Counted from the first letter of the stretch, positions 1 through 56,673 are shown. The stretch is 64,000 nt of DNA from Patescibacteria group bacterium (GCA_015493225.1 WGDO01000087.1:514-64513), one strand, 5' to 3'. A program made the numbers and translations. The notes: generated by a model from the letters alone, not told the origin.

Positions 1-639
1 ATTGATGCTTTTAGATTAGCAGAGATTGGTAAATTAGAACCTAATCTACCTAAATTCTTTGATTCTCGTGAAACCCTTAAAAACAAACGTTTTCAGTCTC
101 TTTTAAAAAATTTAGAAAAGACTAAACAAAGATTTTCAAGAAGTTTAAATGATGCTATCAAGAGTTTTGAAACCTTAGGAGTAACCATGGACTTAACTGC
201 TCTAGAGGAAGCTTTAAAATCAATAGAAACAGCTATTACAGCTTGTAGGAAGATTATAGAAGAAACAGCTGATGACTTCGCTTGTAAAATAGCGGAAACT
301 CCTGGGATCTCTCTTTTTCAAGCTTCTGTTCTTTCTACGGCTATAGCTGGCAGAGAGTTTGATAGTCGTGAAAAACTAGTTGCTTTCTTTGGTTTAGATG
401 TTAGAGCTAGACAATCTGGTAATTGGTCAGGGGCTTCTCATTTGTCTAAGAGAGGTAATGCTTACTATCGTAAAATACTCTTTCAAATTGGTTGGAGTTT
501 AAAACAACATAATGACATTTTTAAAGAGTATTATCAGAGACTGATTAATGATGGAAAGCATTATTTTACAGCTGTTATTGCTACTGCTCGTAAATTTCTT
601 TATTATTTTTTTAAGGTACGGGTTGACTTTTCCTTATAA
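1..639 (+). mobile_element. IS110-family transposase, C-terminal part (5' end truncated by the window edge)
   Basis: Frame 1 is open from nt 1 to the TAA at 637-639. The translation (...FFGLDVRARQSGNWSGASHLSKRGNAYYRKILFQIGWSLKQHNDIFKEYYQRL...) matches the Transposase_20 / IS110-IS116-IS902 C-terminal domain, including the SGKxxxxxxISKRGN signature. The N-terminal DEDD domain lies upstream of the window. Confidence 0.6.
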
Positions 640-4694: not shown

Positions 4695-4786
4695 CACCCC
4701 CTGTGTAAAGGGGGTCAAATTTTCTTGTCATTTTTATTTGTCAACTAGTTGACAAATAAAAATGCCAAGAAAATTTGGGGGTTTTT
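4695..4786. repeat. Long GC-clamped hairpin repeat element, family C (cacccccTGTGTAAAgggggtcaaaTT...AAtttgggggttttt)
   Basis: Perfect palindrome tcaaattttcttgtcatttttatttgtcaac-tag-ttgacaaataaaaatgccaagaaaatttg flanked by a ccccc/ggggg mini-hairpin and a GGGGG-TTTTT tail. Other copies are at 11795, 13383 and 33593. Confidence 0.8.
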
Positions 4787-4871
4787 GAGAATTTTAAGTT
4801 TTAAGCTTTAAATCTGTTCATAGAGGTCATAATTCAATAAAGACCACAAAAAATAAATTTCAAACTAAAAA

Positions 4872-7571: not shown

Positions 7572-7582
7572 CACACAAAATG

Positions 7583-7701
7583 CAAGATACAAATAACAAG
7601 ATACAAACAAATCACAATAACCAATTCTCAAAAAATATTTAAATTTTGGTTATTGAAATTTGAAATTTGTTTGTTTCTTGTTATTTGTAACTTGTATCTT
7701 G
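7583..7701. repeat. Long imperfect palindrome caagatacaa...aataaccaa / ttggttattg...ttgtatcttg (family F)
   Basis: About 120-bp inverted repeat in the def-fmt spacer. Related copies are at 22150-22250, 37283-37362 and 43621-43745. Confidence 0.7.
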
Positions 7702-7739
7702 TATTCTATATTCCATTAATTATCCCACTTAATACATCT

Positions 7740-11794: not shown

Positions 11795-11998
11795 CACCCC
11801 CTGTGTAAAGGGGGTCAAATTCTCTCATTACTTTTATTTGTTAACATAGTTAACAAATAAAAGTAATGAGAGAATTTGGGGGGTTTTTCGATTAATTACC
11901 TAAAAACCCCCGAAGCCTGGACAAGTTCTTTTTTAACTTTCTATCGAAAGTTAAAAAAGAACTTGTCCAACCTTCCGCCCCCCCCCCTAAAAAGGGGA
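11795..11998. repeat. Composite repeat: family C hairpin element (11795-11888) followed by family D hairpin element (11903-11998)
   Basis: Family C: caccccctgtgtaaagggggtcaaattctctcattacttttatttgttaacatagttaacaaataaaagtaatgagagaatttggggggttttt. Family D: cccccgaagcctggacaagtt...aacttgtccaaccttccgccccc. Family D recurs inverted at 39645-39730. Confidence 0.8.
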
Positions 11999-12356: not shown

Positions 12357-12452
12357 CTTTGTGCATTATTAATTTTTATAATTCTAGGTTAAAATCTGAA
12401 ATTTAATTCCTACATCTCTAAATGGTAGTTTAAAATTCCTAATTCTTAATTT

Positions 12453-13397
12453 CTAATTCTTAATTATTTTTGCCCATTCTTGCAATGCCTCCTCATAATT
12501 CCGCAAAGGTTTTCTTTTTCTATTTTGCAAAACAGAAACTTCTGCTCTTTTAGCCGGACGAGGAAATTCTTCTGGACCAACCGGAATTATCTTAGTATCC
12601 AATCCGAGTATTTTATACAGAGTTTTCAATCCCTCATACCAAGTAACTGCCCCTTCATTTACAATATGATAAATTCCAAAAGGTTCATTTTCTTCTACAA
12701 TATTTTTACTTTCCAAAGCTAAATCGGGAGCATAGGTAAATTTACTTAACTCATTATCTACCGCCTTTACTTCTTTGTTTTTTTTACCCAGATCCCCCAT
12801 TACCTCAAAAAAACTCTTTTTTCCCAAAGCATTTTTACTCAATCCTCCAAATAATTTTGACAGTCTAATAATGTAATATTTTTCACCTTGCTCCTCCACT
12901 GCTTGTTCTCCTTTGTATTTTGTCCAACCATAGCGACTTAAAGGATTGGGCTGGTCTTCTTCGGAATATTGCCAATAAGGAATAGTTTCTTCTTTACCCA
13001 TATATTGGCAACCATCACAACCACTGCCACAACAATGGGGAGCTCGTTGTCCACTCCGATAAGTCGGTCTTTTACCATCAAAAACATAATCTGTTGAATA
13101 GTGCGCCAAAACAGCTTCTAGATTTTTAGCAATTTTAGCCAGTTCTCCTGGCAGTTCTGTGTTTAAAATTTTTGCCTTGGCATATTCTTCATCATCTTCT
13201 TCACAAGAATCAACCGCATTATAAGCCACCGCATTATAAATTACATCCGGCCAAACTTCTTGAATCTTTTTTCGTAAATTTTCAAAGTCTCGTACATCCA
13301 CATCATCAATGTCCCAAGCAACCACCTCATATTCCGATTTCACCCCAGGCGCCTGCCCCTCGAAGCCATTTTGGCGAAGTGGGGTAAAGGGGGTCAA
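12453..13397 (-). CDS. dTDP-4-dehydrorhamnose reductase-like protein (RmlD family). The ORF lacks the Rossmann GxxGxxG, which lies upstream in another frame across a repeat insertion
   Basis: STDYVFDG and YGWTKYKGE match the RmlD catalytic Y/K region, and NAVAYNAVD matches the RmlD NAAAYTAVD motif. The ORF starts on TTG inside family C repeat copy 13383-13435. The canonical N-terminus MQKILILGSKGMLGSELVRLYGDGF is encoded at 13403-13519 in a different frame and terminates at a TGA inside the repeat. A Cys-rich insertion (HCCGSGCDGCQY) is also present. Confidence 0.55.
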   Translation of the reverse strand: MTPFTPLRQNGFEGQAPGVKSEYEVVAWDIDDVDVRDFENLRKKIQEVWPDVIYNAVAYNAVDSCEEDDEEYAKAKILNTELPGELAKIAKNLEAVLAHYSTDYVFDGKRPTYRSGQRAPHCCGSGCDGCQYMGKEETIPYWQYSEEDQPNPLSRYGWTKYKGEQAVEEQGEKYYIIRLSKLFGGLSKNALGKKSFFEVMGDLGKKNKEVKAVDNELSKFTYAPDLALESKNIVEENEPFGIYHIVNEGAVTWYEGLKTLYKILGLDTKIIPVGPEEFPRPAKRAEVSVLQNRKRKPLRNYEEALQEWAKIIKN

Positions 13398-13435
13398 AGA
13401 TTCGAGGTCACGAGAATCTTTGGGGGTTTTTCAGT
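13383..13435. repeat. Short family C repeat copy (ggtaaagggggtcaaagattcgaggtcacgagaatctttgggggttttt) inside the rmlD-like gene
   Basis: Same conserved ends as 4695-4786 and 11795-11888 with a short palindromic core gattc-gaggtcac-gagaatc. Confidence 0.75.
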
Positions 13436-13524
13436 ATTAAAACCATCACCATACAACCGCACTAACTCCGACCCTAACATCCCCTTCGATCCTAAAATCA
13501 ATATTTTTTGCATAAATAATTATT

Positions 13525-19800: not shown

Positions 19801-21114
19801 CTACTTACTACCTACTAATTTTATCCATTTTTTATTTTTTAACTCCGCTGGCAAAAATTCCTGCTGAGCATTTTCTCTCTTGCTGGCCTTTGGGGTATAT
19901 TTATAATCTTTTCCATAGCCAAGGTCTCCCATTAATTTTGTGGGGGCGTTACGGATGTGTAATGGCACCGGAAGGTTTCCTGTTCGTTTAATATCTTCCA
20001 TAACATTTTCGTATGCTTCGTATAACGCAATTGATTTTTTACTCTTAGCCATATAAACCGCCGCCTGAGCCAAATTTACACCGCACTCCGGCATCCCAAT
20101 AAATCGACAAGCATCGTAGGCAGCGGTTGCCTGAGGCAAAGCTAAACTATTCGCTAACCCAATATCTTCACTGGCAAAACGAATTATTCGTCGAGCAATA
20201 TAAAGTGGATCTTCTCCCCCCGCCAACATTCTATTCATCCAATACAAAGTAGCGTTCTCATCTCCACCACGCATTGATTTATGAAAAGCACTAATAATAT
20301 TATAATGCTCATCACCAGCACGGTCGTAAAGTAAATTTGATTTTTGAAGAGCTTGTTCAATGTTCTTTTTGGTGATACATTTATCTTCCCTCTTTCTTAA
20401 AGAGGGACTGGAGGGAGATTTCTTTTTTCTAAAATCCCCCTTTAATCTCCTTTTTTTTAAAGGAGGAAGATTATTTGTCAAATCAACTGCCAGTTCCAGG
20501 GCATTTAACATTGTCCGCGCATCACCATTACTCAATTTTACTAAATATTCTTTATTCTTTTTAGTAATTTTTAACTGTCTATTTCCAATCCCTTTATCTT
20601 TATCCTTCAGGGCCTGATTTAAAATAGCTAATAATTCTTCTTCCGTTAAGCTCTCCAAAACAAACGTCCGACAACGAGAGAGTAACGCGTTGTTAACTTT
20701 AAAACTAGGATTTTCCGTAGTTGCTCCGATTAAAATCATCGTACCATTTTCTACGCTTGGTAAAAAAGCATCCTGTTGGGCTTTATTAAAACGATGGATT
20801 TCATCTATAAACAAAATGGTTTTCTCTCCTAGTCGTTTGTCTTTCTCCGCTCGCTCCACAACGTCTCTAATATCTTTAACTCCAGCATTAATAGCACTAA
20901 TTTGATTAAAATTTGCTTTTGTTTCGTTGGCTATAATCCTAGCCAAGGTTGTCTTGCCCGTTCCCGGCGGGCCCCAAAACAAAAGAGAGGGAATTTTATC
21001 CCCTTGGATTAACTCTCTTAAAATTTTTCCCTCACCAACCAAATGTCTTTGCCCCTGAAATTCTTTCAAACTCCTCGGCCTCATTCGATTAGCAAGCGGT
21101 GACTGAGTTGTCAT
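19801..21114 (-). CDS. rarA: Replication-associated recombination protein A (RarA/MgsA AAA+ ATPase) carrying a repeat-derived in-frame insertion
   Basis: Walker [12 protein letters not shown], Walker [13 protein letters not shown], sensor GATTENP, C-terminal MgsA helical domain. A 27-aa basic insertion [27 protein letters not shown] is encoded by a palindromic repeat copy at about 20386-20470. Confidence 0.88.
20386..20470. repeat. Family A/B-type palindromic repeat copy embedded in-frame in rarA
   Basis: ccctctttcttaaagaggg hairpin, then ggagggagatttc, then aaaatccccctttaatctcctttttttttaaaggagg. These are the same building blocks as the intergenic arrays at 36540-36790 and 55531-55630. Confidence 0.65.
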
Positions 21115-22093: not shown

Positions 22094-22149
22094 TTTTTAA
22101 TAATTTATTTATTAAGATATTCTATTATTGTATAACAAACAATAATTTC

Positions 22150-22250
22150 CAAGATACAAGATACAAACAAATTCCAAACACCAAATGCCAAATTTCAAAC
22201 ATTGGTTATTGAAATTTGAGATTTGTTTGTATCTTGTAATTTGTATCTTG
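22150..22250. repeat. Family F long palindrome (caagatacaagatacaaacaa...ttgtttgtatcttgtaatttgtatcttg)
   Basis: The inverted arms are separated by ccaaacaccaaatgccaaatttcaaacattggttattg. Located between rfbB and the DUF456 gene. Confidence 0.7.
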
Positions 22251-22328
22251 TTTCTTTTTCTAATACCACATCCTTATAATTAACAAACATTCAATCCCAA
22301 CCAATAAACAATTAAGTCGTAATTTCGT

Positions 22329-23692: not shown

Positions 23693-23965
23693 CACTAAAG
23701 TTCGAATCATACAATCAATACTCATTATTCACTCGTATCATATTCTCCACATTAAAAAAATAAAAAGGGCTTGCTAAATGCAACCCTTTTTATTTTATTG
23801 TGATAATAAATCATAGATTATACCCCTATCTACCCCCTCCCCTACTCTCTATTCTCTACTCTCTACTATCTAGTGTCTAGTGTCTAATATCTAGTACCTA
23901 TCTCACCAACGCTTTTTGCTTAAGAGTAGAAAAATAGCTTGTAAAAGTATTTGAACCATAAAATC

Positions 23966-29583: not shown

Positions 29584-29800
29584 CAAATCCACCCCTAACC
29601 ATTTTTTGTTCACGGTTCACAGTTCACAGTTCACGGTTTATTTTTTAAAAAGTTTCACAAGACAGGTGTTGGAGGGAAACTAGATAAATCCACCCCTAAC
29701 CCCTCCTTTATCCCATTACGCCAAGGCTACGCGGGACAAGCGCTGGAGGGGAACTACTATCTACCATCTACTATCTACTATCTACTATCTATCCCCCAAC
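29584..29800. repeat. Composite repeat block: aaatccacccctaacc unit, (gttcac[ag])x4, long family A unit and (ctactatc)n
   Basis: gttcacggttcacagttcacagttcacgg at 29613-29640. The unit aaatccacccctaacccctcctttatcccattacgccaaggctacgcgggacaagcgctggaggggaac is at 29686-29760. ctaccatctactatctactatctactatct is at 29761-29792 and overlaps the last codons and stop of capA-like 29785-30951. Confidence 0.8.
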
Positions 29801-30951
29801 CCAAACTCCCCTTCCTCAATCTGTTTTTTCACATCATCCCCCACCACCGACCTAGTGGATAGATTTTGTAAAAACTTTCCTCGTTGTTCCCCGGCCATCA
29901 ATTCCAATTCTCCACTTCTTTGCTTAAATAATGGTATCAAAGTAAATTTAACTTGTCCATCTCCCAGTAAAACTCCCACTCCTAAAATAGACCGAACATC
30001 TTCAGAAAAATATTGGTCAAAAACAAAATTTCCCAAAGAATAAAAAATCACTTTATTTTTATAAATTTCAATGGGCTGAACCACATGAGGATGAGCGCCG
30101 ATAATCAGATCCGCTCCGGCGTCAATAAACAGATGAGCCAATTTTTGCTGTCGCTCATTATTAACTAATTTATATTCTTGCCCCCAGTGAGGATAAACAA
30201 TCACAAAATCGCTCTGCGTCTTCAGGGTTTTAATAATCTCAACAATTTGCTCCGGAAAAAAACCAGCAAACTGATTATAATTCACAAAACCAATTTTCCG
30301 TCCTCCCACATTCTTTATAATACTCATCTTAGCTAAATCCAAGGGATCTCCAAAATAACCAATACTATTCTTAGTTAAAATCTCCTCTGTCTGTTCTAAA
30401 CCTTCATTATGAAAATTTAAAATATGATTATTACCAATGTTTACCAAATTTATCCGATTAGCCTCCAAAAAATTAATGGCTTGTTCGGAATCAAAAGTAA
30501 AACGAAAGTGATTGGGATTTTCAACCGGCTGACCAACCGACACCGATGGCTTATCGGTAATCGGACCTTCTAAGTTAACCACATTTAAATCCTGTCCCCA
30601 AAATAACCGCTCCAATTTTTCCGTAAAAAATCCCACACCCTTTCTGTCCATCAAAATCCTATTCTGCCGATCCAACATCACATCCCCAAAAAATAACATT
30701 TTTATTTGTTTTATTTTTTTGTTTTGTTTTATTTTTAAATCATCATCCGTCTCAACCCTACCGGTTAAACTACCTAAAATTGTTTTAACATCATTCTTGT
30801 CTTGATTGTTATTTTCAACCTTCCCAATAATATTACCACCACGCACTATCACATTATTATTTGATAAAATATATTTTCCAAACAAAAAAAGAATAACTAT
30901 TAAAATAGCTAAAATTATTACTATAAAAACATTTCTTTTCTTGATGCTCAT
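29785..30951 (-). CDS. CapA-family (poly-gamma-glutamate synthesis-type) metallophosphatase with N-terminal TM anchor
   Basis: MLFFGDVMLDR and HPHWGQEY...GAHPHVVQPIE calcineurin-like phosphoesterase motifs typical of CapA/PgsA. Confidence 0.7.
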   Translation of the reverse strand: MSIKKRNVFIVIILAILIVILFLFGKYILSNNNVIVRGGNIIGKVENNNQDKNDVKTILGSLTGRVETDDDLKIKQNKKIKQIKMLFFGDVMLDRQNRILMDRKGVGFFTEKLERLFWGQDLNVVNLEGPITDKPSVSVGQPVENPNHFRFTFDSEQAINFLEANRINLVNIGNNHILNFHNEGLEQTEEILTKNSIGYFGDPLDLAKMSIIKNVGGRKIGFVNYNQFAGFFPEQIVEIIKTLKTQSDFVIVYPHWGQEYKLVNNERQQKLAHLFIDAGADLIIGAHPHVVQPIEIYKNKVIFYSLGNFVFDQYFSEDVRSILGVGVLLGDGQVKFTLIPLFKQRSGELELMAGEQRGKFLQNLSTRSVVGDDVKKQIEEGEFGLGDR

Positions 30952-33405: not shown

Positions 33406-34251
33406 TTAAAACTCCAAAAACTTCCCTTCCAAATAATTCTTAATTGGCTCGGCGGTGGTTTGGGTAATTTTCTCCGGCAAATTATCCATCGCAAACCAGC
33501 CAATCTTATCACACTTATGAGGCTCCATATTCTTTGGCTGACCACTTTTTATCTTGGCAATAAAATTTAAAGCTACCCAGTGTTCAATTTTTTCACCCCC
33601 TGTGCTGAGCCCAGCGGATGCAGGGTAAAGGGGGTCATCCCCCCTTTCGCGAAAAGGGGGATGGGGAGTTTTTATAATATGATCAGTATGAAGCAAGTAA
33701 CCAACAATCTCCACCTTAATACCCAATTCTTCTTTCATTTCCCTAATCATTGCCTTTTCTGCCGTCTCTCCGAACTTCACCCCTCCACCAGGCTTGCTCC
33801 ACCAACCAGCCTCATTACGAACTTCACCCGCCCGCCGAATTAACAAAACTTCCTTTTTATCATTAAAAATCAAACACCCTCCCCCAACACCAATGTAATC
33901 TTTACCTTTTATTAATTTAGATTGCTCTGCATTGCTAGCTTCTCCGTTAATTATGGCTACTTTATTTTTTCTATAAATAAAAACTTGCCATAAAATTATA
34001 CCCGTAGTTAAAACTCCAAGGCCTTGCCCTATAATTATTACTTTATCATTTTTTAACACTCCATAATATGCCCAAAGCAAATATGCTAGCCAGGCTATAA
34101 CCCAAAATGAAATAGACTGTCCCTCAGTCGACTTCCGTCTATAATTTTTTCTAATTTGATCTGGTAATCCAATAACTTTTACCAATATTCCGATGGCCAG
34201 TGTCAGAAATGATACAACCCCAATAAGTGTAATTGATTGTAATAATTCCAT
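33406..34251 (-). CDS. Membrane-anchored NUDIX hydrolase (3 N-terminal TM helices) carrying an in-frame family C repeat insertion
   Basis: Nudix box GGGVKFGETAEKAMIREMKEELGI. Three N-terminal hydrophobic helices. The 27-aa segment KTPHPPFRERGDDPLYPASAGLSTGGE is encoded by repeat copy 33593-33673. Confidence 0.8.
   Translation of the reverse strand: MELLQSITLIGVVSFLTLAIGILVKVIGLPDQIRKNYRRKSTEGQSISFWVIAWLAYLLWAYYGVLKNDKVIIIGQGLGVLTTGIILWQVFIYRKNKVAIINGEASNAEQSKLIKGKDYIGVGGGCLIFNDKKEVLLIRRAGEVRNEAGWWSKPGGGVKFGETAEKAMIREMKEELGIKVEIVGYLLHTDHIIKTPHPPFRERGDDPLYPASAGLSTGGEKIEHWVALNFIAKIKSGQPKNMEPHKCDKIGWFAMDNLPEKITQTTAEPIKNYLEGKFLEF
33593..33673. repeat. Family C repeat copy (81 nt, 3n) inside the NUDIX CDS
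   Basis: caccccctgtg...cagggtaaagggggtcatcccccctttcgcgaaaagggggatggggagttttt. It has the same termini as 4695-4786 and 11795-11888 and an internal ccccccttt-cgcg-aaaggggg hairpin. Confidence 0.75.
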
Positions 34252-35919: not shown

Positions 35920-35956
35920 CTCTCTAAAAAATAAAGACACTTGAAGTGTCTTTATT
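35920..35956 (-). terminator. Rho-independent terminator of rnpB
   Basis: Minus strand: AAAGACACUUCAAGUGUCUUU followed by AUUUUUU. Confidence 0.65.
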
Positions 35957-35958
35957 TT

Positions 35959-36382
35959 GATGACCAATCTTTAAGCCGGGTTCTGTTTAGATAATCATTT
36001 ATCTACGTTAATTATTACTAATTAACTTTAGCGGTTCAAATTCTAAATTAATAGAAAATACGACTTTACATCAGATAGGGTTTACCACTCAATCCAACCC
36101 ATACTAATGAACTGGATTTCAAACTCGCCATCACTGACAAGCGCGCCGGGTAATTCCGAAAAATACCCCGACACTTTTCACCTTTCTCCAGCTCCTGCAA
36201 GCAGGGGCTGGGTAGTATAGTCTCTGCGGCACTGTCCCTGAATAATTATTACTAATTATCCGATTGGCGTTACCAATTATCATTAAGAATTTAATCTCAC
36301 GATGCCCAGACTTTCCTCCCAGTCCTGAATTTAAAATTTTTTAATAAAAAATTTTAAATTCAGAGCTGGGTAATTATCAAAT
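35959..36382 (-). ncRNA. rnpB: RNase P RNA (bacterial type A-like)
   Basis: Minus-strand transcript contains the P4 5' strand GGAGGAAAGUCUGGGC (rc of 36306-36321), the P4 3' strand ACAGAACCCGGCUUA (rc of 35972-35986), and an AGAAAGGUGAAAAGUG...CGGGGUA...UACCCGG P10-P12-like region. A P3 hairpin and a P1 pairing UUGAU...AUCAA are present. No ORF covers this 1.1-kb gap. Confidence 0.8.
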
Positions 36383-36539
36383 CAGTCCTACCTAATATAC
36401 CAGAAAAACCCTCCTTTGTCAAGATAATTTGTACATTTCACAGAAGTTAAAGTAATCAATAGCTTATCCCAAAGTTAGTGCGGTCGTCGCAACTTTGGGA
36501 AAAATTATTGCCAATAATGTAGATTGCTGTTAAACTAAA

Positions 36540-36790
36540 ATTGGTTAATAAATCCACCCCCAACCCCTCCTTTACCAAAGGAGGGGAACCAAAGAAAATC
36601 CACCCCCAACCCCTCCTTTTTTAGCAAAGGGGAAATTTTCCACAGCTTCCACCCTTTGTAAAGGGGAGATTGAGGGGGGATTTTAAAACTAAATCCACCC
36701 CTAACCCCTCCTTTACAAAGGAGGGGAAATAAGGAAATCCGCCCCTAATCCCTCCTTTATTAAAGGAGGAGAACAAAAAGGAGAAACTAA
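36540..36790. repeat. Tandem array of 5-6 palindromic units (aaatccacccctaacccctcctttNNNaaaggaggggaa, plus the cccccctttgtaaagggggg attgagggggg variant)
   Basis: Units abut directly, each about 40-45 nt. Each is a stem-loop with a 10-bp GC-rich stem and contains an AAGGAGG Shine-Dalgarno-like core. Confidence 0.85.
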
Positions 36791-36802
36791 AAAAAATACT
36801 CT

Positions 36803-37111
36803 ATGAAATTTACTCTTCAAAACAAACTAAGTCACAACACCGAATATGTTATGCGCAAAGCCGGCTATACATATATTTTTGATAAAATTTCCCAACATGG
36901 CAGTTTTGTCCATAGACTTACCGCTGAACGCTATCCCCGTTTTCATTTATACATCACCGAAAATGAACAAGGAACTACCTTTGATCTTCATCTTGACCAA
37001 GCCAGGTCTCGCTACCAAGGACAAAAAGCTCATCGAGCTGATTATGAAAGTGAAGAAGTTAAGGCAGAGTTGGCGAGGATTTATTATGTTATTAAAGAGT
37101 TTTTAATTTAA
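36803..37111 (+). CDS. Hypothetical small protein
   Basis: 102-aa ORF immediately downstream of the repeat array. No confident family. Confidence 0.4.
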   Translation: MKFTLQNKLSHNTEYVMRKAGYTYIFDKISQHGSFVHRLTAERYPRFHLYITENEQGTTFDLHLDQARSRYQGQKAHRADYESEEVKAELARIYYVIKEFLI

Positions 37112-37374
37112 CCGGCCCCTACGAAAATATGAATTAATTTTAAATTTTAAGTTTTAAATTTTAAATGAGTTTTAAATTATCTAATTTTTAATATTAAATA
37201 TACAACCATCACAAAACAACAAGGCTCTGAATGATGCGTAAAATTAATAGAAATTAAAAACTTAAAATTCAAAATTAAATATTTAATCAAAATTCCAAAT
37301 TTTTCAAACATTGATTATTGGGATTTGTGATTTATTTGTTTCTTGAAATTTGTATCTTGGAAATTTATAAAATT

Positions 37375-37906
<532 letters not shown>

Positions 37907-37929
37907 TTTTTTATCTCACCCTATTATAT

Positions 37930-38712
37930 TTATCTATTCATACAACATCTAAATTTGTTATCACTACTACTGAGTTCACTCCCGATGTCACCATTATTAT
38001 CAATATAAAAATTGTTACTCGTATCAACCACATCAGCTGTCCATTCATTTTCTCCATTACCAATATCATCAGTTAAAGTTAGCCCATTCACACCCTTAGC
38101 CGCCAATAACTCTGCCGTCGTGCAAAGTCTTTTCCCAGCATCAGCACACAAATTAATGGCATTATTCCAATTAGAATCAGAATGCAAATTACCTTCTACA
38201 CAAAAATCTGCTACTCGCCTATAATCAGTAGGACAATTCGGCATTGCATAGGCCTCCAAAGACCGACCCACTTTTTCTTCTGCTAACTGACCATAAATTC
38301 CCGTCGCCCGCACGGCAATTATTTTATCAAGGGTTGTGTCGGGATTTATAATAATTTTACGATCTTGATTTGTATTTCCCAGCAAATAGATTTCACACCC
38401 TGATTTACCATCGTCAAAAAAACCACTCGGGCAAGAAATTTTTCCATCACCATCCATCGTTTGAGGAGCAAAAGCTTGAGCAATCGTTTGCACATTACCA
38501 CTGCTCACTGTGGCATCATTAATTTTCTTCAAAGCCCACTCAATGCCACTATTAGCACCTTGAAAAGCCGTTACTGATTTTTTACTCTTGGTAGTCATTT
38601 TTCTCTCCACCACCGAGATAGAAACCATTGCCACCGAAATAGACAACGCTCCCACCAAGGCCAGCAATGTCAAAATTAAAATCGAACCTTCTTGTTTTTT
38701 TTGTTTTTTCAT
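37930..38712 (-). CDS. PilX-like type IV pilus minor component (PilX_N-type N-terminus)
   Basis: N-terminus KQEGSILILTLLALVGALSISVAMVSI resembles the PilX N-terminal domain. Cys-rich extracellular domain. Confidence 0.45.
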   Translation of the reverse strand: MKKQKKQEGSILILTLLALVGALSISVAMVSISVVERKMTTKSKKSVTAFQGANSGIEWALKKINDATVSSGNVQTIAQAFAPQTMDGDGKISCPSGFFDDGKSGCEIYLLGNTNQDRKIIINPDTTLDKIIAVRATGIYGQLAEEKVGRSLEAYAMPNCPTDYRRVADFCVEGNLHSDSNWNNAINLCADAGKRLCTTAELLAAKGVNGLTLTDDIGNGENEWTADVVDTSNNFYIDNNGDIGSELSSSDNKFRCCMNR

Positions 38713-38764
38713 TTGTTTGTATTAATTGTTATCATTTTTTAAAAAAACTAAACCAATTCCAAAG

Positions 38765-38910
38765 GCTATTTCCTAGCTTCCCCCCTTTGTAAAGGGGGGA
38801 TTGAGGGGGGATTTTAAAGATTTTAAAACTAAAAAACTAAATCCACCCCTAACCCCTCCTTTATCCCACTACGCCTAAACGGCTACGCAGGACAAGCGCT
38901 AGAGGGGGAA
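38765..38910. repeat. Family B plus family A palindromic units
   Basis: cctagcttcccccctttgtaaaggggggattgaggggggatttt followed by aaatccacccctaacccctcctttatcccactacgcctaaacggctacgcaggacaagcgctagaggggg. Confidence 0.8.
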
Positions 38911-38912
38911 AA

Positions 38913-39578
38913 TTAGAACTCTACTCCACTTTCTCTAGTATAATCCAAAATAGAAACTCCTGTCTGAATATGAGCCTCGGCACTATCCGTTGGGTCTCCA
39001 GATTGTAATCCTTTCTTATAATAAATATCCACATTTATTCTCACAAAACCACGGTGAGGATCATCACTGGAAACATCAGTATTTAAAACATTAAAAGTAC
39101 CAGAAACATCAACCTTACTACTTCCTAATATATCAGTTGCCAAAGAAGAATTAATACCATCACAATCAACTATAGCATTATAAGGACCCGCATTTTGAAT
39201 AATATTACCCGCTCCAATCTGTAGAGCATAAGATTTCACTGTCATTTTTTTATTGCTTCCATTATCAACAAACTGATAACAATATTTAGTAACTGTCAAA
39301 TTATCTATAAAAAACAAAGATTGACCATCAGGAGACACAATAACATTAGAACTAGTCCTCACCTTTTTAGCCAAGTCATCAATGGCATAACGAGCATTAT
39401 CCATTGTTTCTTGCATCGCTTGAGACTTTGTACTAGCTTTAATGGCATTCACAGAAAACATCACCACTCCACCGATAATCAAAGTAAAAATAGCCATGGC
39501 CACTACTACTTCTATTAAGGTAAATCCACCCCTACCAAAATCTTTATCTTCTTTTTTAAAAATTGAAACCTTAGTCAT
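38913..39578 (-). CDS. Prepilin-type (class III signal) pilin/pseudopilin
   Basis: GFTLIEVVVAMAIFTLIIGG cleavage/methylation motif after a short basic leader. Confidence 0.75.
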   Translation of the reverse strand: MTKVSIFKKEDKDFGRGGFTLIEVVVAMAIFTLIIGGVVMFSVNAIKASTKSQAMQETMDNARYAIDDLAKKVRTSSNVIVSPDGQSLFFIDNLTVTKYCYQFVDNGSNKKMTVKSYALQIGAGNIIQNAGPYNAIVDCDGINSSLATDILGSSKVDVSGTFNVLNTDVSSDDPHRGFVRINVDIYYKKGLQSGDPTDSAEAHIQTGVSILDYTRESGVEF

Positions 39579-40935: not shown

Positions 40936-41086
40936 CCTTTGTGTAAATTTTAAATTTTAAGTTTTAAGTTTTAAATGAGTTTTAAATGACTAATTTTTAA
41001 TACCAAATACACAACCATAAATCTTACTAAAAATTCAAAATTAATCATTCATTTAGAATTTAAAATTTAAAACTTAAAACTTTCTA

Positions 41087-42909: not shown

Positions 42910-43458
42910 TTATCCACCAGAACCTGAACCTGAACCAGAACCTGAACCTGAACCAGAACCTGAACCTGAACCTGAACTACTAGCTTTAACCTGTGGACAA
43001 CCATCATTACTAGTACCATTAGTTTGGTTGTTATCAAATTTACAACCATTGATATCACAATAAGCATGACATATAACAGCAGTTCCACTAACTGGACAAT
43101 CATATTTTATAACAAAATCATCCGCCGTAGACTCATCAACATCAAGTGCTTCTGACAAAACCCCACCACCACCACAACTTTTAATAGGTGGTACATTGCC
43201 TATACCATAATCACCACCGCCACTAGCCTGGCAAAGCGGACCCCCCGGAGCACTCTCCAAAATAGTACCACCATTATCAACACAATCTGTTGCTGCCGCT
43301 GTTATGTCTGACATCGTTTTTTTAAAAGCAGTTACTCTAGCCTTTTTACGAGCTGGACCAATCATAATAAAAACTATCCCAGCTAAAATTCCAATAATTG
43401 CCATAACCAAAAGGAGCTCAACTAATGTAAACCCCCTTTTATTTTTTATCAATTTCAT
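42910..43458 (-). CDS. Type IV pilin with C-terminal (Ser-Gly)n tail
   Basis: RGFTLVELLLVMAIIGILAG class III signal. The C-terminus SSSGSGSGSGSGSGSGSGSGSGG is encoded by a tandem hexanucleotide repeat. Confidence 0.75.
   Translation of the reverse strand: MKLIKNKRGFTLVELLLVMAIIGILAGIVFIMIGPARKKARVTAFKKTMSDITAAATDCVDNGGTILESAPGGPLCQASGGGDYGIGNVPPIKSCGGGGVLSEALDVDESTADDFVIKYDCPVSGTAVICHAYCDINGCKFDNNQTNGTSNDGCPQVKASSSGSGSGSGSGSGSGSGSGSGG
42918..42977. repeat. Tandem hexanucleotide repeat (gaacc[ta])x10 encoding (GS)n at the pilin C-terminus
   Basis: agaacctgaacctgaaccagaacctgaacctgaaccagaacctgaacctgaacctgaact. Confidence 0.85.
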
Positions 43459-43620: not shown

Positions 43621-43882
43621 GCAAATCTCAAGATACAAGTTACAAGATACAAACAATTTTCAATAACCAAATCCCAAACTTTTCAAACATTGGTTATTGG
43701 GATTTGTGATTTGTTTGTTTCTTGGTGTTTGTATCTTGGAAATTTATAAATTTGAATCCACCTCTAACCCCTCCTTTATCCCACTACGCCATCCCACTTC
43801 GCTAAAGCTACGAGGGACAAGAGGCTATGCGGGACAAGCGCCGGAGGGGAACTACTACCTACTACCTACTACCTACTACTTA
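43621..43882. repeat. Composite: family F long palindrome plus family A unit plus (ctactacc)n
   Basis: caagatacaagttacaagatacaaacaa...ttggttattgggatttgtgatttgtttgtttcttgg... then gaatccacctctaacccctcctttatcccactacgcc...ggacaagcgccggaggggaac, then ctactacctactacctactacctactact. The last supplies the stop of pilC. Confidence 0.8.
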
Positions 43883-45119: not shown

Positions 45120-45340
45120 TTAAATCCCCCTTCAATCCCCCCTTTACAAAATGGGGAAACTGTAAACACACCCCTTCTCAAAAAGAAGAAACTAAAAATG
45201 GATTTCCTTAGTTCCCCTCCGGCACTTGTCCCGCGTAGCCTTGGCGCAGTGGGATAAAGGAGGGGTTAGGGGTGGATTTCCTTAGTTCCCCTCCTTTGTA
45301 AAGAAGGGGTTAGGGGTGGATTTTAAAAAATAAATAATCC
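45120..45340. repeat. Family B and A palindromic units in reverse orientation
   Basis: aaatcccccttcaatcccccctttacaaaatggggaaa is the rc of the family B unit. ggatttccttagttcccctccggcacttgtcccgcgtagccttggcgcagtgggataaaggaggggttaggggtggattt is the rc of the long family A unit. Confidence 0.8.
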
Positions 45341-54467: not shown

Positions 54468-54675
54468 AATAAGTCTGCTTTGCTTTTAATTTTAATTTGT
54501 AATTTGTAAATTTTAATTCAATTTTAAATAATTCAATTTTAAATACTTAAAACAACAGAAGATGAAAATTGCTCGATAATTTATATTTTATTTGAAAATT
54601 TAAACAATTAGGCTTGAATTAAAATTTACAAATTACAAATTAAAATTTATCCTACCGGCAGACAAGTCTGCTTTA
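54468..54675. repeat. Large AT-rich inverted repeat (arms about 45 bp: ttttaattttaatttgtaatttgtaaatttt / aaaatttacaaattacaaattaaaattta) with flanking direct repeat aagtctgcttt
   Basis: Seen directly in the sequence. The arms are separated by about 105 bp. Lies between the clpC-like gene and comFC. Confidence 0.7.
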
Positions 54676-55496: not shown

Positions 55497-55500
55497 TTGT

Positions 55501-55770
55501 TAGTTCACAGTTCACAGTTCACGGTTCACAGTTTCTTTCCTAGCTTCCCCTCTTTGCAAAGGGGGGATTGAGGGGAATTTCCATGGCTTCCTCCCCCCTT
55601 TGTAAAGGGGGGATTGAGGGGGGATTTTAAGAATTTTAAGTTTTAAATTTTTCTGCCCCAGACGGACCAGCCTGGAGCTAGAAATTTCACGAATTAGTTG
55701 AAATCCACCCCTAACCCCTCCTTTGAGAAAGGAGGGGAACTACTTATCTACTATCTACTATCTACCCCTC
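55501..55770. repeat. Composite: (gttcac[ag])x4, two family B units, one family A unit and (ctactatc)n
   Basis: gttcacagttcacagttcacggttcacag. cctagcttcccctctttgcaaaggggggattgagggg and cccccctttgtaaaggggggattgaggggggatttt. aaatccacccctaacccctcctttgagaaaggaggggaactacttatctactatctactatctac. The last overlaps the ppaC stop. Confidence 0.85.
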
Positions 55771-56673
55771 AAACACTGGCACAATCTGTTTCTTCCTAGA
55801 AACCAATTTATCCACAAATAAAATCCCGTTCTGATCTTCAGCGGAAAATAATTCGGTGAATAATTTTTTGGCTTCTTCATCGGAGTAAAGCGTATAGGAT
55901 TTTTCATTAAGAATATCAACGATTGTAAAATAAACTGCCTTCAAGTTATCTTTTTCTTTTATCTCAGCCAGTTTTTCAAAAATTTCTTCCCTTCTTTTCA
56001 AACCAAAATCAACATCCGTTGTTTCCATCACCCCAATTCCATATTTTCCATCCTTAAAATTAAACTCCTTATAATCCAACCTAATTAAATTCTCCGTAGA
56101 AATATCCCCTAAATCACTTTTAGCTTTAAACATTTCCAAACTAAATTGTTCCAAATCTTCCAATCCCACTATTTCGTTCAATCCTTCCACTAATTTCTTA
56201 TCAGTATCGGTAGTAGTTGGTGAACGAAAAAACAAAGTATCAGAAATAATACCCGCCAATAACAAACTAGCGATTTTTTTGTCCAAATCAATACCCTCAG
56301 AAAAATATTTTTCTGCAACAATTGAACAAGACGACCCAAGTGGTTTAACGCAAATTGAAATTGGTTTATCCGTCTTCAGGTCAACCTTATGATGATCAAT
56401 AACTTCCACCAAACTCAATTCGGCTAAATTATCTATGGCCTGCCCAACTTCATTATGATCCAATAAGACAACTTCTGAACCAGCTTCTAACTCAGAAATT
56501 ATTTCTGGTCTTTTCATATCAAATTTATCAAACACAAATTGTGTTTCTTTATTCAACTCCCCTAGGGCAAAAGCTTGTGCTTCTTCGCCTTGCTGTTTCA
56601 AATATTCAGCATAGGCTACCGCACTACACACCGAATCAGTATCCGGATTTTTATGACCAATTACATTTTTCAT
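55762..56673 (-). CDS. ppaC: Manganese-dependent inorganic pyrophosphatase (family II, DHH/DHHA2)
   Basis: N-terminal GHKNPDTDSVCSAVAYA, DHH motif LLDHNE, C-terminal DHHA2 domain. About 300 aa, as for PpaC. Confidence 0.8.
   Translation of the reverse strand: MKNVIGHKNPDTDSVCSAVAYAEYLKQQGEEAQAFALGELNKETQFVFDKFDMKRPEIISELEAGSEVVLLDHNEVGQAIDNLAELSLVEVIDHHKVDLKTDKPISICVKPLGSSCSIVAEKYFSEGIDLDKKIASLLLAGIISDTLFFRSPTTTDTDKKLVEGLNEIVGLEDLEQFSLEMFKAKSDLGDISTENLIRLDYKEFNFKDGKYGIGVMETTDVDFGLKRREEIFEKLAEIKEKDNLKAVYFTIVDILNEKSYTLYSDEEAKKLFTELFSAEDQNGILFVDKLVSRKKQIVPVFEG

Follow-up and report, generated by a model that had tools for sequence, protein, structure and literature searches.

Short repeats with a mirror-image third domain in a Patescibacteria genome resemble the BoxC/PIT/intrastrand triplex motif class

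We analysed a 64,000-nucleotide stretch of a Patescibacteria group bacterium (GCA_015493225.1, WGDO01000087.1:514-64513; hereafter the window) that contains copies of a short GC-rich palindromic repeat, among them a cluster at 36551-36771. The window has a GC content of about 33%, its GC skew is negative throughout and most of its genes are minus-strand genes. A type IV pilus operon, four tRNAs and a class A bacterial RNase P RNA at 35956-36389(-) (121 bits) are present. Named relatives of its PilC and RarA proteins, at about 50-76% identity, belong to Candidatus Moranbacteria and Patescibacteria, and the host is therefore a bacterium of the Candidate Phyla Radiation (CPR). The repeat cluster lies between a promoter-like site for the RNase P RNA (36394-36422; near-consensus TTGACA and TATATT 17 nt apart, with TG, just upstream of the RNA) and a divergent open reading frame (ORF) at 36803. 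A preliminary description of this DNA had listed such units at seven loci and read them as REP/BIME-like elements. Units are present at all seven loci, and two further sites, at 20387-20468 and 33640-33672, lie in frame inside ORFs (RarA/MgsA and NUDIX, respectively; Table 1).

Read on its G-rich strand, a unit consists of a pyrimidine arm, a short loop, a purine arm that is the Watson-Crick partner of the first, a 3-nt second loop and, last, the purine arm repeated in mirror order. The A type has the form CCCCTCCTTT / loop / AAAGGAGGGG / TTA / GGGGTGGATT, and the B type has the pyrimidine arm TCCCCCCTTT, the purine arm AAAGGGGGGA and the mirror third domain AGGGGGGATT. Loop 1 measures 2-5 nt across the short units; a palindrome pattern with a fixed loop, CCCCTCCTTT N5 AAAGGAGGGG, had no match since loop length, as reckoned for that search, varies between 2 and 6 nt. 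Loop 2 is TTA, TTG or CTA. The third block is complementary to nothing nearby: it mirrors the purine arm, with G facing G and T or A facing A, which is the exact requirement for an antiparallel purine-motif triple helix. The sequence AAATCCACCCCTAA, the 5' part of the unit, is the complement of this third mirror-repeat domain rather than a tail, and the B "variant" is a diverged A copy in the opposite orientation. The Shine-Dalgarno-like AAGGAGG, which every unit had been thought to expose, is confined to the A type and is base-paired in its stem; B-type units carry AAAGGGGGG. Repeat finding in the window returned 12 copies of AAATCCACCCCTAACCCCTCCTTT (family D1) and 6 of a CCCCCCTTTGTAAAGGGGGGATTGAGGGGGG variant (family D5). 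One D1 member, at 39512-39548, was set aside as a chance match: GGGGTGGATTTACC there is coding sequence for GFTLIE, the N-methylation motif of the prepilin type in ORF 38913-39578.

Table 1. Repeat units and flanking heptamer arrays in the window
Feature	Coordinates	Strand	Remarks
Variant triplex-motif unit	20387..20420	+	TCCCTCTTT ctt AAAGAGGGA ctgg AGGGAGATT, 9 perfect triads; in frame within RarA/MgsA ORF 19801-21114(-)
Degenerate B-type unit	20431..20468	-	Faces the unit at 20387 in the same RarA loop; intact counterpart in relative L154
A-unit remnant	29584..29606	-	Third domain GGTTAGGGGTGGATTT retained, hairpin gone
(GTTCACN)4.4 heptamer array	29608..29638	+	Flanks composite
A-long unit	29690..29751	-	CCCCTCC, 38-nt loop with inner imperfect hairpin, GGAGGGG, tta, GGGGTGG
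(CTACTAT)5.4 heptamer array	29754..29791	+	Includes stop codon of gene 29785-30951(-)
Imperfect unit	33640..33672	+	CCCCCTTTC gcg AAAAGGGGG atg GGGAGTTTT; in frame within NUDIX-domain ORF 33406-34251(-)
A unit	36551..36586	-	10 perfect triads: CCCCTCCTTT ggt AAAGGAGGGG ttg GGGGTGGATT
Degenerate A unit	36597..36633	-	
Degenerate B unit	36648..36682	+	TCCACCCTTT gt AAAGGGGAGA ttg AGGGGGGATT
A unit	36692..36726	-	10 perfect triads
Degenerate A unit	36736..36771	-	
A unit	37376..37411	-	10 perfect triads
A unit	37421..37456	-	One stem mismatch
(CTACTAT)5.4 heptamer array	37459..37496	+	Abuts stop of ORF 37490-37906(-)
B unit	38779..38813	+	10 perfect triads: TCCCCCCTTT gt AAAGGGGGGA ttg AGGGGGGATT
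A-long unit	38844..38907	-	Third domain facing that of B unit 38779..38813
A-long unit	43755..43850	-	Doubly nested inner hairpin; third domain GAGGTGGATT, one mismatch
(CTACTAC)4 heptamer array	43852..43879	+	Begins at pilC stop codon
Degenerate B unit	45123..45157	-	Entire composite at this locus inverted
A-long unit, inverted	45214..45275	+	
A unit, inverted	45288..45322	+	One stem mismatch, one third-domain mismatch
(GTTCACN)4.6 heptamer array	55503..55533	+	
Degenerate B unit	55546..55580	+	
B unit	55592..55626	+	10 perfect triads
A unit	55702..55737	-	10 perfect triads
(CTACTAT)3.6 heptamer array	55740..55765	+	Contains stop of DHH gene 55762-56673(-)

We scanned the window with a purpose-written, ITxF-like search for an all-purine arm with an upstream complement and a downstream mirror, each with at most one mismatch. 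The scan found 12 intact units (9-10 triads, stems of 9-10 nt) versus 0 in each of 30 block-wise shuffles. The long-loop variants, which retain stems of 6-7 nt, were recovered once loop 1 was allowed up to 75 nt. We then scored the third domain separately. Purine-arm hairpins from the window and 38 genome loci were gathered blind to the downstream sequence, which was scored afterwards; because hairpins were collected regardless of what follows them, circularity is avoided. A perfect mirror third domain follows 42% of the hairpin-strand instances, against a ceiling of about 50% that arises because both strands of each hairpin are scored. The controls gave 0% for a direct-order rule, 0.7% for a permuted purine arm and 0.2% for a shuffled downstream sequence. 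Among arms without the GGAGGGG consensus, 28% have a perfect mirror compared with 1.2% in the control.

For at least 13 distinct combinations of purine arm and third domain the match is perfect; examples are AAAGGAAGGG/GGGATGGATT, AAAGAGGGG/GGGGAGATT, AGGAGAGGG/GGGTGAGGT and AGGGAAAGGG/GGGTTAGGGT. In the 1.09 Mb of collected loci we counted 310 units, which represent 115 different triples and 66 different purine arms. Where subfamilies differ, the changes are compensated in all three domains; the stem-preserving compensatory changes anticipated in the preliminary description are thus present, and they extend to the third domain. Within a subfamily, point changes are mostly uncompensated decay (units at 36597, 36648, 36736, 45123 and 45288).

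Units also occur in tandem arrays with a period of 44-46 nt, joined by linkers CCTTAGTT or CCTTGTTT. Hairpins inside loop 1 or loop 2 are tolerated with the three domains retained, as illustrated by the mini-hairpin tggccgaaggcc in loop 2 and by the inserts of 38-80 nt in loop 1 of the "long" units. The inner hairpins of the long-loop units are nested and imperfect, and with z scores of 0.2 to -1.1 have no significant thermodynamic support. Folded as single-stranded DNA by a nearest-neighbour model, which covers Watson-Crick pairs only, arms 1 and 2 pair into a 10-bp stem of about -10 kcal/mol and the third domain is left free.

This architecture is that of class II purine-type intrastrand triplex motifs, which comprise a pyrimidine arm, a loop of 1-6 nt, a purine arm, a short loop and a third purine-rich arm, with stems of 6-15 nt (Holder et al., 2015, PMC4666352). 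In that class the third arm runs antiparallel to the purine arm and obeys a mirror rule of G.G:C and A.A:T or T.A:T (Holder et al., 2015). The window units likewise show three consecutive domains per strand, a short loop 1, a 3-nt loop 2 that is most often TTA, and an antiparallel mirror third arm. In E. coli, loop 2 is of two types, with TTA in type A elements, and inverted pairs always join an A to a B element (Holder et al., 2015). We read the hrpB-mrcB pair of E. coli directly (K-12 164400-164800): a B unit precedes an A unit of inverted orientation and the two third domains face each other, the same arrangement as at 38779-38907 in the window. This BoxC/TMECO pair has no feature in the RefSeq annotation, so the class goes unannotated even in a reference genome.

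The mirror third domain places the units in the BoxC/PIT/intrastrand triplex class rather than among REPs. From their sequences, we consider it probable that they are DNA repeats of this kind, of the class II purine motif, that are prone to insertion and have recently multiplied. They are not TMECO in the strict sense. The TMECO consensus is 5'-CCCTCNCCC N3-6 GGGNGAGGG N3 GGGNGAGGG (Holder et al., 2015), whereas the window units carry CCCCTCCTTT/AAAGGAGGGG/GGGGTGGATT or the B-type core; TMECO-like cores were found only in other loci (L017, L094, L102 and L129). Other distinguishing features of the window units are their A/T-extended arms (AAA/TTT/ATT) with 10 triads, the nested hairpins of the long variants, the 44-46 nt tandem arrays and the heptamer arrays alongside. 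Their host is a 33% GC Patescibacterium, while TMECO has been reported only in Proteobacteria (Holder et al., 2015). The unit strings had no exact match in the literature searched or in the portion of the Holder et al. supplements that was covered.

In such a repeat, arms 1 and 2 would pair as a Watson-Crick hairpin and, when the G-rich strand becomes single-stranded (on the lagging-strand template, in a repair gap or in a transcription bubble), the third arm would lie antiparallel in the major groove of that hairpin, forming up to 10 G.G:C, T.A:T and A.A:T triads. The folded unit could then cause local polymerase stalling, indels, tandem duplication and rearrangement, effects that have been inferred for E. 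coli TMECO (Holder et al., 2015). On this reading the units are neither genes nor regulators of the adjacent operons through RNA. They behave as selfish or structural DNA prone to insertion and expansion, and their recent multiplication in the lineage has given single copies, tandem copies and inverted A/B pairs, mostly in intergenic DNA and otherwise in frame in tolerant protein loops.

Recent multiplication is supported by a comparison of the pil operon with that of seven syntenic relatives, whose PilC identities are 92, 88 (on each of two contigs), 83, 81, 78 and 72%. Units of at least 8 triads number 0 in the 7-21 kb available for each relative versus 14 in the 64-kb window, 10 of which lie within the corresponding 21 kb. 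Between pilT and pilC, the window has a spacer of 257 nt with three units. The corresponding spacer of the 92% relative measures 74 nt, with flanks identical to those of the window and only a degenerate hairpin, and those of the other relatives measure 17-49 nt. The pilC-pilin spacer measures 417 nt in the window versus 59-161 nt in the relatives; a weak, different unit occupies this spot in the 92% relative. Synteny with the 92% relative (L041) breaks beside the composite at 55503-55765 (window 55497-55761 vs L041 776-802): comF adjoins recA in L041, but a DHH-family gene in the window and in L042. Since they are absent from the orthologous spacers of the seven relatives, the units are not conserved regulatory parts of the operons; they are recent gains in the lineage.

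The same absence bears on the roles in RNA that the preliminary description had favoured, in which the hairpins serve as terminators, as mRNA 3'-end stabilisers, or in Shine-Dalgarno sequestration or mimicry. The strength of the stem, the position of many units directly after the stop codons of minus-strand genes, and the AAGGAGG in the A-type purine arm, which lies 8-9 nt before an ATG in one relative (L010), would all fit such roles. An intrinsic terminator, however, combines a GC stem with a T-rich run within 0-2 nt, and the stem of the units is followed by TTAGGGGTGGATTT, with no T-run. A terminator scan of the window gave 10 sites versus 10.5 expected from shuffles and flagged no unit's own pyrimidine-purine hairpin; the one site that overlaps unit DNA, at 45262-45289, is a weak pairing across units, between the G-rich domains of one and the linker of the unit that follows. 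In Rfam 15, only the RNase P RNA and the tRNAs of the window reach the gathering score, and 36400-38950 yields only sub-threshold matches to miRNA hairpins; no family matches the units. Both orientations occur within single composites, one composite is wholly inverted between genes of the same strand, and units occur in coding sequence in either orientation. Watson-Crick pairing in RNA also leaves unexplained a third domain that is a mirror rather than a complement. Finally, RNA reportedly does not form triplexes of the purine motif, and in E. coli PIT elements acted neither as promoters nor as terminators (Holder et al., 2015). We therefore regard a primary role in RNA as unlikely.

Like TMECO, which is patchy among E. 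coli strains (Holder et al., 2015), the units are mostly intergenic, follow no orientation rule, are patchy among close relatives and vary in their sites. TMECO has been reported to be always intergenic (Holder et al., 2015), in contrast to the RarA and NUDIX units and to about 15% of the copies in low-GC, CPR-like loci (35/233 units), which lie in long open frames inside genes. Random positions fall in such frames in 45% of cases, so units are depleted from genes, not excluded from them. The G-rich strand is the coding one in 13 of these gene-internal copies and the C-rich strand in 22. Units in other CPR loci interrupt long ORFs that resemble RadA, PheT, PPDK (pyruvate phosphate dikinase), ValS and AroA (named by eye from translations), and gene-internal units add peptides such as KSTPNPSFDKEG, PPLKKGGLRGDF and NPPPTPPLKKGGE.

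The RarA gene offers the clearest series of sites. The window protein has about 23 extra residues at the unit site relative to E. coli RarA (3pvs), and across 17 aligned homologues the insertion point, which follows LELAV.L, is hypervariable. Among proteins that are 80-87% identical, this site is filled 0, 1 or 2 times, always in frame: it is empty in L155, holds one intact B-type unit in L154 (TCCCTCCTTT gaa AAAGGGGGGA tta AGGGGGGATT), and holds two facing units in the window and in P0242. In L156 and L157 it is occupied by unrelated small repeats, including a family that also occurs in the window, CACCCCCTGTGTAAAGGGGGTCAAA ... TTTGGGGGTTTTT. This second small palindromic family, at 4695-4793, 11795-11894 and 13413-13438 in the window, is without a mirror third domain; its element in the L157 RarA gene is in frame and encodes HYPLCKGGQNS. 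A CGCGGAC-rich repeat encoding TRTSASQRGLTRKT also fills the hot spot in L156 and L157. The loop-1 inserts of the A-long units (29700-29740, 38855-38895, 43765-43840 and 45222-45262) carry GCTACGCGGGACAAGCGC, which resembles this CGCGGAC-rich repeat, and may therefore be a separate nested element.

Rickettsia palindromic elements, of 100-150 bp and found only in Rickettsia, reportedly also lie in frame in protein genes. Compared by description, the two kinds of repeat share a palindromic build and the addition of short peptides to tolerant protein loops; the present units differ in being of the triplex type, smaller and not bound to Rickettsia.

Copies occur far beyond the 64-kb window, and a local duplication does not account for them. 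We collected loci by exact match to an A-type 22-mer, ATCCRCCYCYARYCCCTCCTTT. A 596-Gb genome collection contains 38 such loci, compared with about 2 chance matches expected by our information-content estimate, and the hairpin, which lies outside the 22-mer pattern, is completed in nearly all of them. Most belong to Candidatus Shapirobacteria; the other hosts are Saccharibacteria, Gracilibacteria, SR1/Absconditabacterales, Peribacteria, a Hymenobacter isolate, and metagenome-assembled genomes (MAGs) of Cyclobacteriaceae, Pseudomonadota and Sericytochromatia. Some contigs of MAGs labelled "uncultured Gammaproteobacteria" have flanks nearly identical to those of Candidatus Shapirobacteria contigs (L022 vs L021; L033 vs L007 and L005), and these labels are probably a mislabelling or mis-binning in public records.

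JGI metagenomes add 106 loci that match the 22-mer. Among the contigs of Ga0256831 and Ga0256832, L103 (90.6%) and L096 (93.7%) come from close relatives of the window, and contigs of these samples match window genes at 78-94% identity. About 20 further contigs align to the window solely over a repeat of about 100 nt; as that repeat is all they share, the copies are dispersed at other loci. The Ga0210063 contigs (64-71% GC; L068, L071, L072, L094, L102, L105 and L129) contain three unit types, in arrays and in inverted pairs: an A type (CCCCTCCTTT ctc AAAGGAGGGG ttg GGGGTGGATT), a B type (TCCCCCCTTT ctc AAAGGGGGGA ccg AGGGGGGATT) and a TMECO-like type (GGGAGAGGGGGA / AGGGGGTGAGGG). The units in these high-GC contigs keep their AT-rich AAA/TTT/ATT ends. 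Their host, an organism of free-living type, carries a trp operon whose TrpB is closest (75-80%) to named Thermoanaerobaculia/Acidobacteriota proteins. Unit types are thus found in hosts of 27-71% GC that belong to different phyla. In this A-biased set an A and a B unit are neighbours 31 times, pointing in opposite directions in 29 cases and in the same direction in 1, and B-B pairs are never inverted. This agrees with the inverted pairing of two types seen in TMECO. Carriage by phages or plasmids was rejected: the 22-mer has 0 matches among the viral contigs of IMG/VR, and one window composite and one high-GC composite gave no blastn match in PLSDB, where a low-complexity filter may mask some matches.

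Several points weigh against the assignment to the intrastrand triplex class and the behaviour we attach to it. The TMECO triplex forms in isolated single strands, and in vivo dimethyl sulfate footprinting failed to detect a triplex (Holder et al., 2015). The triad percentages for the 1.09-Mb set come from units that were pre-selected at no more than one mismatch, and collection by the exact A-type 22-mer biases type counts, A/B pairing and phylogenetic spread towards A units. No target-site duplication is seen at the two comparisons of empty and filled sites (pilT-pilC and RarA). The strong hairpin may also exert an RNA-level side effect on transcripts that contain units.

The assignment must also be weighed against REP/BIME or REPIN elements mobilised by a RAYT (Y1/HUH) transposase. 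In their general genomic behaviour the units do form a dispersed, mosaic family of short GC-rich extragenic palindromes, single or clustered, often just after genes and variable among strains. They have mosaic arrays with alternating orientation and variable linkers, their inverted doublets resemble REPINs, and presence/absence polymorphism implies mobility. The REP class itself does not hold, given the mirror third domain, as REPs are two-arm imperfect palindromes that have no such domain and that carry a GTAG head on their 5' side. GTAG stands directly 5' of the pyrimidine arm only where an (ATAGTAG)n array abuts the unit, and is missing beside units that have no heptamer array. No Y1/IS200-type transposase or cognate RAYT is present among the ORFs of the 64-kb window. 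The preliminary description had suggested a search for an associated transposase; a Pfam scan of the main ORFs gave only a partial IS110-family fragment (Transposase_20 domain only) at 187-639(+), at the contig edge and far from the units, so that such an association finds no support within the window. The same unit types recur in hosts of 27-71% GC from different phyla, unlike lineage-specific REP/RAYT pairs. Mobilisation as REPs by a RAYT is accordingly improbable in our judgement. A CRISPR array was likewise rejected, as it had been in the preliminary description: units are parted by linkers of 3-10 nt or oppositely oriented, and the window ORFs contain no cas domains.

A further possibility is that the G runs themselves are functional, as a G-quadruplex, a protein-binding site or a DNA-uptake sequence. 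The G-rich strand contains runs such as GGAGGGG TTA GGGG T GG, and a type IV pilus/competence-like gene set lies in the same host region. Perfectly mirrored variants such as AAAGGAAGGG/GGGATGGATT or AGGGAAGGA/AGGAAGGGT, however, do not have four G3 tracts, and the C-rich arm would compete in cis for these runs. For recognition by a protein or an uptake receptor, mirror symmetry has no known meaning, and uptake sequences are species-specific whereas the units are common to several phyla. We consider this explanation very unlikely.

More speculatively, the A and B units might constitute a cross-phylum family of very small (about 36-45 nt) mobile elements. The inverted A/B doublet would possibly be the mobile unit, as in REPINs, spreading through its folded single-stranded structure with the help of a trans-acting activity and inserting at hot spots, including in frame into essential CPR genes. 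Two observations point in this direction: the same two types, paired in the same way, are shared by a Patescibacterium of 33% GC, Bacteroidota and the contig set of about 67% GC (TrpB nearest to Acidobacteriota/Thermoanaerobaculia), and empty, single and double states exist at one RarA codon position among proteins of 80-87% identity. Alternatively, the resemblance between phyla may reflect convergence under a narrow structural grammar that needs no dedicated mobilisation machinery. Because the collection demanded an exact 22-mer, horizontal spread and convergence under the triplex grammar are inseparable in this set, and we hold cross-phylum mobility to be a minority possibility.

The intergenic DNA that harbours the units is also rich in period-7 tandem arrays, about 30 per 64 kb (for example 7575-7707, 12434-12465, 22150-22256, 23842-23904, 29608-29638, 37136-37166, 40944-40976, 43629-43739 and 54487-54647). 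The preliminary description placed the units in a fixed order, with (gttcacN)4 upstream and (ctactatc)n downstream. This order stands in part: GTTCAC arrays flank units at 2 loci only and CTACTAT-type arrays at 4, and the period of the latter is 7 rather than 8, (CTACTAT)n, as it is for (GTTCACN)4. On the minus strand, (ATAGTAG)n reads as TAG in all three frames, and the stops of four minus-strand genes (29785, 37490, 43876 and 55762) lie within or adjoin CTACTAT-type arrays; in the DHH gene, the array stands in place of the last codons present in relative L042. Inverted arrays of the form (CAAGATA)n...(TTGTATC)n make hairpins of about 120 nt at 7576-7700, 22136-22256 and 43622-43744, the last of which is also found in the 92% relative and not in more distant ones. 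An (ACCTGA)10 tract at 42916-42977, an 18-nt repeat present 3.4 times, lies in the Ser/Gly-rich low-complexity tail of a pilin-like ORF, 42910-43458(-).

Very small structured repeats amid tandem heptamer arrays recall the cyanobacterial SDR (hairpins of 21-27 nt) and STRR heptamer repeats, which are said to form nested insertions and to be mobile by inference. The resemblance is one of description only: host phylum and sequences differ, and SDRs are hairpins rather than three-domain mirror motifs.

The BoxC/PIT/TM repeats of E. coli were already known in the 1990s, and neither their function nor their mode of spread has been established. If the assignment is right, the units described here would extend the class to the Candidate Phyla Radiation, with the mirror third domain retained in numerous variants of the sequence and over a host GC range of 27-71%. 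Beyond the CPR hosts, they add to the known class gene-internal insertions, A/B pairing across phyla and a clean series of empty and filled sites. The pilT-pilC gap and the RarA loop with 0, 1 or 2 units form a natural series in which mobility and local origin become directly testable against each other. The in-frame entry of units into housekeeping enzyme genes of small CPR genomes has consequences for the annotation of genes, the alignment of protein families and breaks in metagenome assemblies.

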